From IMG/VR virus record IMGVR_UViG_3300025732_000016: a DNA stretch of 64,000 nucleotides. The stretch is one strand, 5' to 3'. The translations under genes and the position numbers were made by a program. Every line of letters starts with the position of its first letter. Position 1 is the stretch's first letter. A model generated the notes under the pieces. The model saw nothing but the letters and a program-made list of their open reading frames with translations, was not told the DNA's origin and searched no databases. This DNA is from a virus (lineage: Duplodnaviria > Caudoviricetes). Positions 4,093-50,162 of this stretch are shown piece after piece.

Positions 4093-4098
4093 TTCTTG

Positions 4099-4126
4099 AA
4101 TCTAAAAATTGATGTTAAAAGTAAAC
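4099..4126 (-). promoter_or_regulatory. sigma70-type promoter GTTTAC-N16-TAGATT, leaderless to 4092
   Basis: Matches the recurring class (see findings); directly follows the terminator hairpin. Confidence 0.45.
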
Positions 4127-4150
4127 GGCGGGGGACCGAAGTCCCCCGCC
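4117..4150 (-). terminator. Rho-independent terminator with cUUCGg tetraloop
   Basis: GGCGGGGGAC-TTCG-GTCCCCCGCC followed by GTTTACTTTT, downstream of 4179..5852. Confidence 0.85.
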
Positions 4151-4178
4151 GCCCCCTCGTCAACCGAGGGTCATGTCA

Positions 4179-5852
4179 TCAGCGGATGACAACCACAACC
4201 ACGTCGTCGATGGCCACGTCGAACGTGAAGTCGACGGAGGCACCTCCAGCAGAGATCGAGTAGTCTGCTGTCGAAGTCATCATCTGGCCGTTCAGGTAGA
4301 TGTCAACGCGTGTGAGGTCCGACGGGAAGACGTTAGATCCCATCGCTGCAGACATATCCACGATCGAGGCATCGGGGGAGGGCACGGCGCCGAGTATCGC
4401 CTTGGACCACTTGCCCTTGCCACCGCCGCCACCGGCAGCGAGCTCATTGAGAGCGCCGATGATCGAAGTCGAGGTGAAGCCAACGAGTGACGTCTGGCCA
4501 GACTGAGCAACGGTGATCGAACCACCGTTGTAGCCGAGCTGGAGGTACTGGCTTCCACCGTCGATGTAGGCGTCAGATGCGGTAGCACCGTCGATGAACA
4601 CCTTGCCGAACTGGACAGTCGCGGAGGTATTGATGCTCTGGGGCAGGCTGAGGGTGATGCCGTGGAGATCGGTTCCGCTGCCAGTGACGATCACCTGATT
4701 GGCGGTGCCGAGAACCCAGTCGGCGAAGTCCATCTCGACGAGGTTACCAGAAGGGTCAACAGCGACCGGAGCCGAACTGAGGTCCAGAGCCTGGATGGTA
4801 TCCGCGGCAAACTTGTCAGAGGCGATCCACTTGCCACCATCAGCCGTCGTCCAGCGGATGCTCTCATCGACGTTCGAATCGGAACCGAGGTAGATACCTG
4901 CTCCGTTAACGATCGAGCCCGAGGAGATGACGATCTTCGCGTCCTTCACCAGAAGGTCCTGGGTGTTGACGTAAGTCGTCGAACCCATGATGTTCAGGTC
5001 ACCGGTAACAGTGAGGTCACCCAAGAAGGAGCCGCTGCGAGCGCTGAGGTCCTTGCTGAGAGTGAGACCTGTCCCTGCCGCGTAGGTCATGCCAGCGTCA
5101 GAAATGATGCTCTTGTCGGTGTCAACGTAAGTGACCTGCGTAGCAGTGAGGTTGGTGCCCTGGAGCTTGGGAGCAACGAAGACGCTGTTCGGGGCGTCGT
5201 ACTTCAGCCCAGCGTTGTCGATAAGCTTCTTCGTGCTATCGTGGAAGACGATCGCACCAGCAGTGTTCGAGAGATCGTTGACCGTGAGAGGACCAGCGAG
5301 AGTCGTGCCCGCAGACTCGAACTTCGCCTTCTCTGCACCGCCGAACTGGATGGAGAGCTTCTCACCACCGAGGCTTCCGAGGTCCGCAACGATCTTCTTG
5401 CCACCAGCGGGTGAGAACTTGAGATCGTTAGCAGTAGAGACCTTCGCTTCGACAGCCTTGTTGAGGATCACGTCGCCAGAAGAAACGGTGACGTCACCCA
5501 CAATCTTCGCGGTGGCGCCGACGTCGAGATCAGCATTGAACTTCGCGCCAGCAGAACCGGTCACGGAGCCAGTAGCGTTGCCCACAGTGAACTTGTCGTT
5601 CGCCGAGCCGTCCTGAACCTTGAAGTCGCCACCCTTGATGGTGGTCGCCTGGGTGAAGAGTCCCGCCACCTGATTGGTGAACGCGCCTGCACCGTGGATG
5701 CGCTTGATGGCGCCAGCAAATTGTCCGAGAACTGCCTCAAGGTCGCCCGCGGCAATAGCGCTCGGCGCCGCCGCGATGGTACCAGAGGCGGCAGCCTCGA
5801 TGCTTGAAAGCGACCCTGTAATAGAGTCTAGTCTGAGTTGTGTACGTGCCAT
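4179..5852 (-). CDS. Virion fibre/appendage protein
   Basis: 557 aa, A/G/S/T/V-rich beta repeats, C-terminal VDIYLNGQ...DY module shared with 6259..7434; strong C/G-ending codon bias. Confidence 0.65.
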   Translation of the reverse strand: MARTQLRLDSITGSLSSIEAAASGTIAAAPSAIAAGDLEAVLGQFAGAIKRIHGAGAFTNQVAGLFTQATTIKGGDFKVQDGSANDKFTVGNATGSVTGSAGAKFNADLDVGATAKIVGDVTVSSGDVILNKAVEAKVSTANDLKFSPAGGKKIVADLGSLGGEKLSIQFGGAEKAKFESAGTTLAGPLTVNDLSNTAGAIVFHDSTKKLIDNAGLKYDAPNSVFVAPKLQGTNLTATQVTYVDTDKSIISDAGMTYAAGTGLTLSKDLSARSGSFLGDLTVTGDLNIMGSTTYVNTQDLLVKDAKIVISSGSIVNGAGIYLGSDSNVDESIRWTTADGGKWIASDKFAADTIQALDLSSAPVAVDPSGNLVEMDFADWVLGTANQVIVTGSGTDLHGITLSLPQSINTSATVQFGKVFIDGATASDAYIDGGSQYLQLGYNGGSITVAQSGQTSLVGFTSTSIIGALNELAAGGGGGKGKWSKAILGAVPSPDASIVDMSAAMGSNVFPSDLTRVDIYLNGQMMTSTADYSISAGGASVDFTFDVAIDDVVVVVIR

Positions 5853-5995
5853 GATTCCCTTCCCTGTCGGTTGGAGTGATCCCAGTGACTACCGAGTCAC
5901 TGAGTACGTTGACTGGACGCGTGGTCCAAAATCTTTCCGTCGTCCAGGCTCGTAGCCCTTAGCGGTTCGCGACTCGACTCAACATGGACTGGGCT
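5853..5995 (-). ncRNA. Candidate structured cis-regulatory RNA (intercistronic leader)
   Basis: Stems AUGUUGA/UCAACGU, CUGGACG/CGUCCAG and CAGUGACU-CGGU-AGUCACUG; possible loop UCGGU/ACCGA pseudoknot; no family recognised. Confidence 0.5.
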
Positions 5996-6222
5996 CATGG
6001 CCCGTAGAGCATTCTCTTCACCTGACGCAATGAAGCGTCATAGCGTGGATACTCTGAGAGTATGTATTCTTGAGAAAGTTCTAAAGCTCTATTTTCTGCA
6101 TCATCAAACTCAAAAACGAATTTCCCTTTTTCCCTGGTAGCTGAGATGATTCTCACACCTCTCATAAGCAGAAAGGCGGCGAGAGAGATGTCAGCAGTAG
6201 TGTAGTGCGTTTTTGTTTCCAC
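5995..6222 (-). CDS. DUF5659-like small protein
   Basis: HYTTADISLAAFLLMRG...FVFEF pattern resembling DUF5659. Confidence 0.6.
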   Translation of the reverse strand: METKTHYTTADISLAAFLLMRGVRIISATREKGKFVFEFDDAENRALELSQEYILSEYPRYDASLRQVKRMLYGP

Positions 6223-13486: not shown

Positions 13487-14089
13487 TTAGTCCAAGATGT
13501 AATCGAGGTTGATCTTACAAGTGAGAGTCGGGATTCGAAGCTCGTTGGCGAGGTTGTGACCCTTCGCCTCATTTGCATCGAGGTACCAATCTGCGTGACC
13601 CCTCTCGTGGACCATCTTCAGGAAATAGTCCGATGGCTTGCCGCAGTTGCGAGCCATCATCTCGTAGACCTTCTTGTTGAGGCGCTCGACTTCCTTCGCG
13701 TCGGCCTTGATCTCCTCGACCTTGCCCCATGCGCCGCTGGAGACGTCGTGGATCATGAGGGTCGCGTCCGGGTCCATGTAACGCTTCCCCTCAGCTCCGA
13801 AGCTGAAGAGGATCGCTCCGCAGCTCATTGCCTTGCCCTCGATGATGGTGGCCACCGGAACTCGGGAGGCCTTGATCGCCGAGATCATTGCCATGAGGGA
13901 GTAGACCTGACCGCCGTAGGAGTCGATGACGATGGGGATCACCGACTGGCCCGTGTTCTGTGCCATGCTCATCTGGGAGGTAAACTCCTTCGCCGAATCC
14001 TCGTCGAACTTGTTCACTCGGATGATGATCGGATCGACCTTGAGCTCGACTGCCTTGATGTGATTAGAAACGTCTGCGATGAAGTTCAC
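13487..14089 (-). CDS. clpP: ClpP-like serine protease
   Basis: IDSYGGQVY, AMSCG (Ser), MIHDV (His), DWYLDANEA (Asp); start moved to GTG 14089 (MNFIADV). Confidence 0.88.
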   Translation of the reverse strand: MNFIADVSNHIKAVELKVDPIIIRVNKFDEDSAKEFTSQMSMAQNTGQSVIPIVIDSYGGQVYSLMAMISAIKASRVPVATIIEGKAMSCGAILFSFGAEGKRYMDPDATLMIHDVSSGAWGKVEEIKADAKEVERLNKKVYEMMARNCGKPSDYFLKMVHERGHADWYLDANEAKGHNLANELRIPTLTCKINLDYILD

Positions 14090-14141
14090 TGCGTACCCCG
14101 GTTGTGTTAGGTTGCGAATAGCCTGTTCGATTTCGTCTTCT

Positions 14142-16631
14142 TCACTTGCACTTGGAGAAGCCACACGCCTTGCAAGAGAGGCACCCCTCTTGATAGACGA
14201 GCTCTGAGTTACCACACTCAGGGCACCCCTTTTCGCTTGACTTTGTACCATCCTTGATGTACCCCTTGAGAACTCTTGCGATTACTCTTGCGTATGAGAA
14301 CATGTCACTGTTCTTGTCCTTCTGTAGTTGTTCCACGATGTACTGGAGTGGGACATCGTGACGGAGAGCCAGTGATATAGTCCTCGTGAACGCTCCTTGA
14401 GTCGGATTGTCGAAGAGGTTGACAACGTCCTTGAAGACGAGATTCTCATCGTCACCGACCGGGACAGAGAGGTTGTATGTGGCAACACCATCACGCTTAC
14501 CATTTTTAATCAAGGAACCTGATTTGTATCGCTTCGGGATCTCGATATTCTCAGGAATGCCGCAGAAGACTTCGTAGGGCTTGCCATCGTTGAGACCTAT
14601 GAGGACCATCCACGACTCAGTGTTCTCACCGTTCCTGATGTTGGCCCGGTGAATGTCGCAGTGAAGAGACTTCGGCCTCCTGGGAGTGAGTCTCCCATCC
14701 TCTGACTTCTTCTCCTTCTTGGGCTCATCATTCTGCACCAGAACGCCTGTCCTACATCCGTCACGGTAGACTGTGAAACCCTTACAACCGAACTTCCACG
14801 CCTTCATATAGACGTCATTCACAATCTCACGTGTAGCAGAGTTCGGGAGGTTGCAAGTTTTAGAGATGGAGTGATCGATCCACTGCTGAGCCGCAGCCTG
14901 GATGTCGACCGACTTTTCCCAATCGATGTCGTTCGCAGTTGCTCCCCAGTATGGGCTCTCCTTTGGGTCGGTCTTTCCCGTACGATCCATCCACTTCTTG
15001 AACCAGTGGTGGTAGACCGTGTACTCCTGCCACTTGTCACCCATCGGATCCACAAAGTCGACCCTTGACGTGAGATCTCCCTGCGTGATCTTACGACGAC
15101 GCTTGTATGAGAGCAGGAATGCAGGTTCGATACCCGATGTCGTCCTGGTAAGACAGGAGACTGAGCCAACCGGCGCCGTAGTCGTTAGGGCAATGTTGCG
15201 GCGGCCAGTGGTCTTCCACATATTATAGCTGTCACCATTGCAGGCTGACATCACCCTGCACAGGTAGAGATGGTCCTTCTCCTTCTCATAGTCGAAGGCT
15301 GGGAAAGCGCCGCGCTCCTTCGCCATGATGAGTGAAGAACGGTGAGCTCCGATTGCGAGAGCTCTGTAGATCTCACGAGTAGCGTCGATCGAACAACCGT
15401 CACCGTAGCGAATGTTCATTGCTGCAAGAGCGTCACCGAGTCCAGTGACGCCGAGACCCGTCCGTCGACCATTCTTACCAGCCGCGCGGATCTTGTGCCA
15501 GAGATCCCATTCAATCCGCTTCACGTGATCTGGCTGCGGGTCCTTCTCGATCTTCTCGAGGATTCGATCCACGCACTCAATCTCAAGATCGACAAGGTCG
15601 TCCATGAGACGCTGGGCCTTCATCACCACAGTGTTGAATCGATTGAAGTCAAACGTAGGACTGTCGCCGAAAGGATCGGTTACAAAGGACGTGAGATTAA
15701 TGACCATCAAACGACACGAGTCATAAGGACTGAGAGGAATCTCACCGCATGGATTGGTAGAGATCGTCTTGTAACCGACGTCACGATAGCAGTCAACGAT
15801 TCCTTGGTTGACGATGGTGTCCCAGAAGAGAGCGCCAGGCTCCGCGGAAGCCCAGGCTGCATCAACGAACTTATCCCAGATCTGCTTCGCGTCGACCATC
15901 TTGACGATCTCTGCGTCCTCGGGATGAGCCTCAACCGGCCAGCGAAGGCAGAAACCGGTGTTGCCCTCGACCGCCTGCATGAACTCGTCCGTGAAACGGA
16001 TAGAGATATTCGCGCCCGTCACCTTCTTCAGGTCACGCTTGATGTCAATGAATGTCTCGATCTCCGGGTGGCGACAGTCAATCGTGAGCATCAGAGCGCC
16101 ACGTCGGCCGCCCTGCGCCACCTCGCGTGTAGAGTTAGAGAATCTCTCCATGAAGACACCGATGCCATCAGTCGTCCGAGCAGCATTCGTGGTGGGCTGA
16201 CCCTTTGGGCGAATGGTGGAGACATCGAATCCGACTCCGCCGCGGCGCTTCATGATCTGGACCTGCTCCTGGTCAGTGAAGAGAATGCCACCGTAAGAGT
16301 CCTGTGGCTGCTCAATAACGAAGCAGTTTGACAGGCTCTGCAGTTGGTAGTAATTCCCGATGCCCGACATCGGAGAACCCTGTGGGATGACGTCCTTGAA
16401 GTCCTTCAGGAGCTCGTAGATCTCGTCTTCGCTCATCGGGTTCGGATACTTTGCCTCAATACGGGCAAACTCCTTCGCGAGTCGACGATGCATCTGGTCC
16501 GGATTGGTCTCGATTAGGTCGTCGTCTGCGTCGCGAAGCGCATACTTCATGAAGACGTCTGGAGCGAGCTCATCACCCTCGAAGTAAGCGGATGTCTCCC
16601 TAAGTGCAGTTTGCCTCGTTGTCTCGTTCAT
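14142..16631 (-). CDS. nrdJ: Class II (adenosylcobalamin-dependent) ribonucleotide reductase
   Basis: SLSNCF, QGGRRGALM, STNPCGEIPL, TAPVGS...TTSGIEP, DHSISKT, YRDG, C-terminal CPEC..C..C Zn ribbon; start ATG 16631 overlapping the helicase TAA. Confidence 0.9.
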   Translation of the reverse strand: MNETTRQTALRETSAYFEGDELAPDVFMKYALRDADDDLIETNPDQMHRRLAKEFARIEAKYPNPMSEDEIYELLKDFKDVIPQGSPMSGIGNYYQLQSLSNCFVIEQPQDSYGGILFTDQEQVQIMKRRGGVGFDVSTIRPKGQPTTNAARTTDGIGVFMERFSNSTREVAQGGRRGALMLTIDCRHPEIETFIDIKRDLKKVTGANISIRFTDEFMQAVEGNTGFCLRWPVEAHPEDAEIVKMVDAKQIWDKFVDAAWASAEPGALFWDTIVNQGIVDCYRDVGYKTISTNPCGEIPLSPYDSCRLMVINLTSFVTDPFGDSPTFDFNRFNTVVMKAQRLMDDLVDLEIECVDRILEKIEKDPQPDHVKRIEWDLWHKIRAAGKNGRRTGLGVTGLGDALAAMNIRYGDGCSIDATREIYRALAIGAHRSSLIMAKERGAFPAFDYEKEKDHLYLCRVMSACNGDSYNMWKTTGRRNIALTTTAPVGSVSCLTRTTSGIEPAFLLSYKRRRKITQGDLTSRVDFVDPMGDKWQEYTVYHHWFKKWMDRTGKTDPKESPYWGATANDIDWEKSVDIQAAAQQWIDHSISKTCNLPNSATREIVNDVYMKAWKFGCKGFTVYRDGCRTGVLVQNDEPKKEKKSEDGRLTPRRPKSLHCDIHRANIRNGENTESWMVLIGLNDGKPYEVFCGIPENIEIPKRYKSGSLIKNGKRDGVATYNLSVPVGDDENLVFKDVVNLFDNPTQGAFTRTISLALRHDVPLQYIVEQLQKDKNSDMFSYARVIARVLKGYIKDGTKSSEKGCPECGNSELVYQEGCLSCKACGFSKCK

Positions 16632-50013: not shown

Positions 50014-50085
50014 GTGATCCTCCTATGCTCCGAAAGCTTCCAGTCATCTGTCGGTGTCAGATGATCACTAGACTGGGCTTGACTT
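50014..50085 (-). promoter_or_regulatory. Structured 5' leader sharing motifs with 5853..5995
   Basis: CCAGUC/GACUGG enclosing UCAUCUG/CAGAUGA; contains AGCCCAGUC and GAUCA-N6-ACCGACAG. Confidence 0.5.
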
Positions 50086-50092
50086 TATGTAT
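50086..50092 (-). promoter_or_regulatory. Putative late promoter (GGTGA)ATACATA
   Basis: 72 nt before ATG 50013, just after the capsid terminator. Confidence 0.6.
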
Positions 50093-50109
50093 TCACCTCT
50101 GCAAGATTA

Positions 50110-50139
50110 AACTACAACGGCCACCCCGAAGGGTGGCCG
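50110..50139 (-). terminator. Terminator with cUUCGg tetraloop after the major capsid gene
   Basis: CGGCCACCC-TTCG-GGGTGGCCG then TTGTAGTTT. Confidence 0.8.
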
Positions 50140-50162
50140 CGTAGCGCCTAACGGCTAGAACA

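Follow-up and report, generated by a model that had tools for sequence, protein, structure and literature searches.

A conserved leader RNA predicted to mask the ribosome-binding site of a fiber-like gene in large uncultured phages

A 64-kb stretch of the genome of a giant freshwater phage (Duplodnaviria, Caudoviricetes; IMG/VR record IMGVR_UViG_3300025732_000016), hereafter the window, carries a 142-nt spacer between a small gene for a DUF5659 protein and a gene for a fiber-like protein. What does this spacer do? The initial annotation read it as a complex structured RNA of no recognized family, acting as a switch-like cis-regulator or as a processing site. We favor the explanation that the spacer makes up most of a conserved leader on the fiber mRNA, present in single copy, and that this leader keeps the ribosome-binding site (RBS) paired until ribosomes from the upstream gene open it; we hold this account as a whole to be reasonably probable. 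Its firmer part is the masking of the RBS by a cis-regulatory leader, which the predicted folds make likely; unmasking by upstream translation in this phage is a tentative proposal on which we would not count. The conservation, covariation and pairing potential of the leader are observed, and from them we infer any effect on translation.

In the proposed mechanism, a UCC-containing segment past the DUF5659 stop codon would pair with the Shine-Dalgarno (SD) region of the fiber gene to form a helix, P1, that closes a junction holding one variable hairpin and two further hairpins, H3 and H4 (Table 1). In this phage, the last DUF5659 codons and the stop would also pair with the fiber AUG. The fiber gene would then be translated only once the masking helices open, and the simplest opener would be ribosomes reaching the DUF5659 stop, a case of translational coupling by unmasking; the fold would also draw stop and start together. 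A protein bound to an array of repeats in the leader is another possible opener. By prediction, the SD and the AUG lie in a stable helix. The spacer as a whole folds somewhat more stably than chance (minimum free energy, MFE, -56.4 kcal/mol; z = -2.4), with 4 of 200 shuffles equally stable. P1 is a long-range helix, its strands about 110-120 nt apart and enclosing two or three hairpins, and in the window positions 5988-5980 pair with 5869-5861 at an ensemble probability of 0.83-1.0.

Relatives of the locus were gathered by protein-guided scans of IMG/VR and metagenomes and then by a scan with a DUF5659 alignment; their loci are labeled with L-numbers (L001, L016, etc.). The protein-guided scans recovered fiber homologues at 33-60% identity; wherever upstream sequence was present, a DUF5659 gene and a spacer of 83-167 nt lay ahead of the homologue. 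With the DUF5659 alignment, 41 distinct loci came to light in IMG/VR, on contigs from the sea or from fresh water that reach 332 kb in length; 83-250 nt after DUF5659, each has a gene that shares an N-terminal motif (M-x(1-4)-[TS][QK]x[RK]-x(3,4)-[ST][GA]S). The total is 51 distinct leaders in about 30 sequence groups, all on large uncultured phage contigs and each ahead of a fiber gene with an M-A-R-T-Q-x-R-L start, and the gene order DUF5659-leader-fiber is kept in all relatives. Nucleotide and tblastn searches of cultured phages (50,697 records) returned no match for the locus, DUF5659 or the fiber N-terminus, and a contig scan of cellular genomes with the fiber N-terminus gave no relatives. 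Because the module is carried by dozens of large uncultured viral contigs yet has no match among cultured phages, the whole clade appears to lack a cultured representative.

In partition-function and minimum-energy folds of 21 leaders, the GG of the SD has its partner in the homologous UCC segment at the 5' end in 18, mostly at probabilities of about 0.6-1.0; in a nineteenth, L053, the partner is another segment, containing UCU, just past the stop. In the full set of 51 leaders, complementarity between the SD region and the leader sequence upstream of it has a mean z of -1.8 (p <= 0.05 in 49%). The flanks of P1 vary in matched ways between clades around an invariant UCC/GGA core. For example, the helix is formed by UCCUGUC/GACAGGA, by UCCUUGUC/GAUAAGGA with one U and one A added, by UCCUUUGUU/AACAAAGGA with two added per side and a G-C pair turned into A-U, or, in L002, by AGUACCU/AGGUACU, which extends the helix on the other side of the core. 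These variants look compensatory. With windows set without reference to the fold, swapping partners between leaders weakened the duplex from a cognate mean of -9.7 to a non-cognate mean of -7.7 kcal/mol (p = 1.5e-4). With chosen windows, 0 of 100,000 permutations matched the cognate pairs of 5' segment and SD, a result biased by the choice of windows. Furthermore, RNAalifold returned P1 as the sole consensus helix in the AT-rich clade. The 5' strand of P1 starts inside the DUF5659 open reading frame (ORF) or at most 17 nt past its stop in 13 of 13 leaders of the GC-rich clade.

The helix between the DUF5659 stop and the fiber start is part of the MFE fold (duplex -16.2 kcal/mol, z -4.0) and would mask the fiber AUG too in this phage. 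Start-codon masking by the end of the upstream ORF was also considered as a family-wide trait and rejected at a family mean z of -0.04. In this phage the stop/start helix competes with a local hairpin, H1, whose probability in the window ensemble is 0. The relatives' versions of H1 have the stop codon in or beside the loop and covary as GGGC/GCCC, GGAC/GUCC, GAGC/GCUC and AGAAAU/AUUUCU. As a separate observation, the DUF5659 ORF has lost its usual stop in three relatives (L001:2672-2914, L015:868-1110 and L017:874-1113), where it extends by 8-10 codons through the anti-SD segment and terminates in the loop of the next hairpin.

Hairpins at or just past the DUF5659 stop are common in the family (35% of windows at z < -1.64). 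Their frequency agrees with a role in RNA stability or processing, in which the hairpins would protect the ends of the fiber or DUF5659 message or mark a cleavage site and the SD complementarity would be non-regulatory. T4-like phages have many intercistronic hairpins, and H4 is some 30 nt from the start, a position from which a 5' hairpin could stabilize a processed message. However, such a role leaves the conserved, co-varying partner of the SD unexplained, and the longest continuous stem, of 10 bp, is too short for RNase III. Nothing points to self-cleavage either, as no ribozyme model matches at E <= 10. We consider a stability or processing element improbable.

Within P1, H3 and H4 recur upstream of the fiber start in the GC-richer clade to which the window belongs. 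H4 extends a hairpin already recognized by the initial annotation (CAGUGACU-CGGU-AGUCACUG, 5902-5883), has an ensemble probability of 0.81-1.0 in the window, and is the only helix of that annotation to be kept, with covariation, among relatives: 7 of its 10 modeled pairs change on both sides among 13 relatives, and the near-identical L046 and L016 differ in H4 by a U-A to C-G swap. H3 covaries as GGAC/GUCC, GGUCUC/GAGACC and GGGCU/AGCCC, and the two hairpins flank a conserved GUA(A/C)C(C/U)CA element. A covariance model was built from H3, H4 and the tail to the start codon, with P1 left outside because, over its variable interior, the alignments would become local and lose the 5' strand. The model has exactly one match in the window (57 bits) and one per relative, and it also matches one relative outside the seed (E about 3e-5). 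Five whole contigs, the largest of 257 kb, gave one confident match each (E < 1e-4), with two additional weak matches in one contig (E 0.03 and 0.3). Because there is one confident match per genome, the H3/H4 element is gene-specific and single-copy and not a dispersed repeat, promoter or terminator.

The covariation that the initial annotation had proposed to look for among homologous leaders is thus found in H3 and H4. In a model-based alignment of 13 sequences, which was fitted to the H3/H4 structure and so favors it, 86% of the H3/H4 cells are paired, compared with 25-40% in slid controls. Half of the 16 pairs (seven of these eight in H4) change on both sides, and 0 of 500 shuffles reached the covariation score. 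G-U pairs outnumber A-C mismatches by 11 to 4 on the sense strand, an excess that points to an RNA on that strand. This excess, like stems that covary instead of keeping their sequence, speaks against an element acting at the DNA level, such as an array of protein sites or palindromes, a promoter or a recombination site. H3 is palindromic, and the repeated oriented motifs of the leader could be protein sites on DNA; however, the motif is strongly strand-asymmetric, its 5.8-nt period misfits the DNA helical repeat, and the pairing partner is the SD itself. A DNA-level element is, in our view, highly improbable.

The hairpins inside P1 are not shared by all clades. H2 is common only to the window, L016 and L046, and other clades have a different hairpin or none. 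H3 is missing in L002, whole clades lack both H3 and H4, and an AT-rich clade is without any middle hairpin. A marine clade (L077, L078, L081, L082 and L092) has a covarying hairpin of 11-12 bp about 30-75 nt before the fiber start (UGUCAAAUUUGC/GCAAAUUGACA in some variants and GAUGAUUUUUGCA/UGCAGAUCAUC in others), followed by a conserved box, GCCAAUAAUCUAUAAA, just before the SD. Judged by its placement, this hairpin is a positional analogue of H4.

Several other pairings proposed for the window can be weighed against this pattern. The segments on which they were built are all present on the minus strand (AUGUUGA 5985-5979, UCAACGU 5912-5906, CUGGACG 5947-5941, CGUCCAG 5919-5913, ACCGA 5871-5867, CCCAGU 5993-5988 and ACUGGG 5886-5881). 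The AUGUUGA/UCAACGU helix, taken to close the junction, has an ensemble probability of 0.0 in the window and is lost in relatives; the conserved closure is that of the 5' leader end with the SD. The CUGGACG/CGUCCAG stem (5947-5941/5919-5913) is indeed favored over H3 in the window ensemble (0.6-0.8 vs 0.2), but this long-range form is phage-specific and its conserved version is the local UGGAC-loop-GUCCA hairpin, H3. A pseudoknot between the H4 loop and ACCGA is likewise specific to this phage and not kept in relatives. The repeated GUCC and GGAC segments do permit alternative pairings, as had been suggested, and the fold models indicate that some alternative pairing in the window leader is real.

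Alternative pairings and the lack of a known family are also what a metabolite-sensing riboswitch or a self-cleaving ribozyme would display. With the covariance models of Rfam 15, the spacer has no match at E <= 10 and the leaders of 10 relatives have none at E <= 1, in agreement with the earlier statement that no family was recognized. The architecture is not conserved, however: H2 is variable, H3 is dispensable in L002, the middle hairpins are absent from the AT-rich clade, and the leaders measure anywhere from 83 to 250 nt. The relatives share no junction core or aptamer-like core, nothing points to ligand sensing, those Rfam searches returned no ribozyme or riboswitch, and a tail fiber has no obvious ligand logic. 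This makes a riboswitch or ribozyme the least probable of the explanations considered here. The broader proposal of a structured cis element has held up, as the leader is conserved, gene-specific and junction-like, with a long-range helix around hairpins.

Where the fiber message starts bears on how P1 could be opened. A motif, ATA[CG][AT]TA[GAT], often after GA or GTGA, lies 16-83 nt upstream of at least 13 genes in the window. A position weight matrix (PWM) built from 13 sites, which score 9.5-16.8, gives high scores almost only at gene-upstream positions in the window. The motif is probably the late promoter of this phage group, analogous to T4 TATAAATA. Inside the spacer, the best PWM score is 2.4, with no good match, and scans identified no sigma-70-like promoter and no intrinsic (Rho-independent) terminator in 5853-5994, H4 being followed by AUCACUCC and not by a U tract. 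A high-scoring site does lie within the DUF5659 ORF, where it falls on the codons GAA-TAC-ATA (E-Y-I) at a distance of 72-76 nt from the stop. Ten relatives (L001-L004, L016-L020 and L029) have ATA(C/T)NTA or a near variant at the same position, and in 9 of 10 relatives of the GC clade the residue at that point (I, L or V) is encoded by an NTA codon. Such codons account for 0-5.5% of the I/L/V codons of the relatives' fiber ORFs and for 9.8% in the window. The use of otherwise rare NTA codons at that position indicates selection at the nucleotide level on an embedded promoter-like site, which is a candidate start for a fiber leader of about 200 nt. The AT-rich clades have no ORF-embedded site; instead, TATATAAT- or TATTTAAT-like sequences occur in their spacers, upstream of the anti-SD segment. 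In every clade, then, transcription of the fiber message probably begins ahead of both P1 strands.

The masking of an SD by an RNA helix is well documented in T4-type phages, where RBS-sequestering hairpins precede T4 e (lysozyme), I-TevI, I-TevII, I-TevIII, segB and Aeh1 mobE (PMC2988022). In T4 e and I-TevI, a late promoter inside the masking hairpin yields open late transcripts (PMC2988022). The leader described here resembles these hairpins as a cis-acting RNA structure, predicted to place the SD of a late-expressed gene in a helix with the upstream leader, in a phage with T4-like capsid and portal genes. However, the T4-type structures are local, simple hairpins, whereas P1 is a long-range helix enclosing two or three hairpins, and there is no sequence homology. 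Under the T4 scheme of temporal control, masking of the fiber RBS would be limited to read-through transcripts, and a late promoter within the structure would yield transcripts without the 5' strand. The T4-like capsid and portal genes, the use of this logic by T4 for several genes (PMC2988022) and the conserved GUA(A/C)C(C/U)CA between H3 and H4 would accord with it. Yet the best promoter score in the spacer is far below those of the matrix sites, and because the site scoring 10.2 precedes the 5' strand of P1, both strands would still be part of late transcripts; the promoter-like sites of the AT-rich clades are likewise upstream. This placement upstream of both strands argues against the T4 scheme, which we consider very unlikely, and also implies that coupling to DUF5659 translation is not a universal opener.

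Translational coupling by unmasking operates in MS2, through a long-range pairing between the coat and replicase genes, and in E. coli rpmI-rplT. As in these systems, the RBS of the downstream gene is predicted to pair with sequence in or beside the upstream ORF, where finishing ribosomes would melt the pairing, and in the window the upstream stop region would pair directly with the downstream AUG. In this phage, the layout suits unmasking by ribosomes that finish the DUF5659 ORF, because the anti-SD lies 7 nt past the stop and the stop is predicted to pair with the start. Pairing of the downstream RBS within reach of upstream ribosomes is predicted for the window and across the set of 13 GC-clade leaders and not for the AT-rich clades. 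Unlike in MS2 and rpmI-rplT, in many relatives a promoter-like site precedes the 5' strand, which begins 34-40 nt past the stop, and this excludes coupling as the mechanism of the whole family. Other readings of the spacer were tried and rejected. An upstream ORF in the leader (AUG-UUG-...-UAA, 5985-5959) was dropped, as it has no SD and is missing from L016. Joining of DUF5659 and fiber by read-through, frameshift or gene-60-like bypass was set aside too: the spacer contains stops, a CCA landing site would be out of frame, and the last sense codons vary among relatives.

Several observations weigh against a leader that is masked by P1 and opened by upstream ribosomes. The SD has a pairing probability of at least 0.9 in one third of the other genes of the window (157-nt folds), so SD pairing alone is not unusual. 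MAFFT and RNAalifold on full-length leaders leave the P1 strands out of register, making an automated pair count unusable; the covariation of P1 comes from a hand alignment and from the swap tests, both of which shared ancestry and base composition can inflate. The AT-rich clades have late-promoter-like sequence in the 34-40 nt that separate the P1 5' strand from the DUF5659 stop, and the stop/start helix is clade-specific, confined to the window and its closest relatives. Furthermore, the strong late-promoter-like site inside the DUF5659 ORF of the window means that many fiber transcripts may start without the DUF5659 start codon, which weakens coupling as a general mechanism. The phage and its host are uncultured, and the masking is a prediction from sequence and computed folds. 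Finally, the masking model leaves unaccounted for an array of AGU(C/U) repeats in the leader.

In the window, five copies of AGUC in 142 nt amount to 35 per kb, whereas other spacers have 5.2 and coding sequence 4.5 per kb; the in-phase spacing of the copies has p = 0.001. AGUC was enriched six-fold in the first 18 leaders and was strand-specific (AGUC 52 vs GACU 9). The 51 leaders together contain 196 AGU[UC] against 59 expected, with pair distances peaking at 5-6, 11-12, 17-18 and 23 nt (z 12 to 39), and the array, of 3-9 copies, is significant in 30 of the 51 leaders and 17 of the 30 sequence groups. L020 has two more repeat copies than L019. The anti-SD segment, i.e., the 5' strand of P1, is embedded in the array. 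In AT-rich relatives, the gene upstream of DUF5659 also has a repeat-bearing leader, of about nine tandem AGUUU (L007:1265-1347) or of AAGUU(U) variants (L008:1523-1582), so periodic AGU repeats are not confined to the fiber leader in those phages.

These properties raise the alternative of a protein-operated translational switch, which shares the RBS-masking core with the explanation we favor and differs only in the opener. The array would be a platform for an oligomeric or cooperative RNA-binding protein whose binding would stabilize or open P1; the DUF5659 product, given its strict linkage to the leader, is the obvious candidate. The abundance, period and strand specificity of the repeats, their restriction to this leader within the window, the gain of copies in L020 and the embedding of the P1 5' strand in the array all speak for such a switch, as does the order DUF5659-leader-fiber in the 41 IMG/VR loci, which is kept even with a promoter-like site between both genes. 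Tandem short motifs control RBS access or gene expression elsewhere: TRAP of B. subtilis binds (G/U)AG repeats with 2-3-nt spacers, and gp32 binds the UUAAA/UAAA repeats of the T4 gene 32 operator. The leader resembles these operators in having a tandem short motif, with a 5-6-nt period, where control of RBS access is predicted, and differs from them in its motif, AGU(C/U) in 3-9 copies, in having a candidate protein only, and in the absence of the array from some lineages. Indeed, the array is weak or missing in L001, L002, L003 and L017, which keep P1, and some repeats may be spare copies of the anti-SD.

The DUF5659 protein itself gives no sign of RNA binding. A confident structure model (predicted local distance difference test score, pLDDT, 88) has no clear structural match: Foldseek returned none at E <= 0.001, and the best alignment by VIA-align (Z 4.4), to ferredoxin-like and ring-building folds, is below noise. 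The ESM atlas gave no functional lead for DUF5659, and a literature search found no paper mentioning it. In phage Mu, the zinc-finger protein Com activates translation of mom (PMC6483171). The DUF5659 locus is similar to com-mom in its small upstream gene, in a downstream start region held in a predicted inhibitory stem and in conserved RNA features beside the stem. However, the leader is much longer here and has a repeat array, and DUF5659 has no cysteines in the window and most homologues, with a Cys4 pattern in none, and hence is not Com-like. On balance, a protein-operated switch is unlikely, and its more specific form, in which a ring-like or cooperative DUF5659 oligomer reads the 5-6-nt-period array and so sets the pairing of the anti-SD with the fiber RBS, is less likely again. 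If true, that form would assign a role to an uncharacterized domain and define a TRAP-like class of regulator in an abundant clade of uncultured giant phages.

The rest of the window places the leader in its genomic setting (Table 1). The window encodes a T4-type major capsid protein (Gp23), a portal protein (Gp20), two sheath-like proteins and a ribonucleotide reductase. The fiber-like protein matched no Pfam or PHROG family, and the only Pfam match of the DUF5659 protein is DUF5659. Downstream of the fiber gene, a hairpin with a U-rich tail is the probable end of the fiber transcription unit; a terminator consensus scan missed it (4124-4153), and equivalent hairpins lie 3' of the fiber gene in relatives. 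The spacer before the fiber gene is 142 nt long (5853-5994), as first reported, and is exceeded by a 149-nt spacer at 50014-50162, so it is not the longest intergenic gap in the window. In that longer spacer, a GC-rich terminator-like hairpin follows the capsid gene and is itself followed by a late-promoter-like site and a leader of about 75 nt, which has a long hairpin (CCAG..UCAUCUG/CAGAUGA..CUGG) and a GUGAUC complementary to the GAUCAC immediately 5' of the AUG; this may be another masked start. The larger gaps of the first ORF map contain open frames. An apparent 657-nt gap after the ribonucleotide reductase gene, for example, is filled by a 264-codon open frame (13487-14281, minus strand) that overlaps the end of that gene.

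Table 1. Positions of the fiber leader elements and of other features in the window (minus-strand segments within descriptions are written 5' to 3').
Feature	Position	Strand	Description
Window			64 kb; one strand of a large phage genome; GC 53%; 54 of 57 mapped ORFs on the minus strand
DUF5659 gene	5995..6222	-	75 aa; Pfam PF18903, E 2.6e-10; constant upstream neighbor of the leader
Fiber-like gene	4179..5852	-	557 aa; conserved N-terminus MARTQLRL..TGS; homologues of 33-50% identity on large viral contigs
Spacer (main part of leader)	5853-5994	-	142 nt between the DUF5659 and fiber-like genes
P1, 5' strand (anti-SD)	5980..5988	-	UCCAUGUUG; begins 7 nt past the DUF5659 stop
P1, 3' strand	5861..5869	-	CGACAGGGA; holds the first GGA of the SD tract (purine tract 5864-5856)
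Stop/start helix, 5' strand	5995..6006	-	UACG 6006-6003 and GCCAUGA 6001-5995 (last DUF5659 codons and stop)
Stop/start helix, 3' strand	5843..5854	-	5846-5843 and 5854-5848; fiber start codon 5852-5850 and flanks
H1	5991..6003	-	GGGC-CAUGA-GCCC; DUF5659 stop codon (5997-5995) in the loop
H2, variable middle region	5931..5970	-	GGCU-ACG-AGCC hairpin 5957-5947 and CUGGACG 5947-5941
H3	5914..5928	-	Conserved local hairpin UGGAC-CACGC-GUCCA, then near-invariant AGUC
H4	5881..5904	-	10-bp hairpin CUCAGUGACU-CGGU-AGUCACUGGG
5' AGUC cluster	5971..5990	-	Copies at 5990-5987, 5979-5976 and 5974-5971; further copies at 5914-5911 and 5890-5887
Late-promoter-like site in DUF5659 ORF	6054..6071	-	Core ATACATAC 6067-6060; PWM 10.2, rank 16 in the 64-kb window, with nearly all of the better-scoring sites upstream of genes
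ATA[CG][AT]TA[GAT] example sites	45300, 49530, 61245, 53985, 37223, 11576, 50096	-	Examples of the motif 16-83 nt upstream of genes
Probable terminator	4124..4153	-	GC-rich 13-bp hairpin, then UUUACUUUU; from a fold of 4093-4178

The leader is a new RNA family of a known regulatory kind, as RBS masking by RNA structure is a classic form of phage control. The family lies outside Rfam and is widespread, with 30 sequence groups or more represented on contigs as long as 332 kb from both freshwater and marine settings. Its unusual features are that a long-range junction takes the place of a simple hairpin, that short repeats recur periodically in an array, and that the codons of the upstream gene contain a late-promoter-like signal; the array could conceal something more novel. 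Most likely, to judge from the predicted folds, the leader throttles or times fiber production. It provides a first functional lead for DUF5659 and a testable handle on how abundant uncultured T4-like phages dose or time their receptor-binding fiber.

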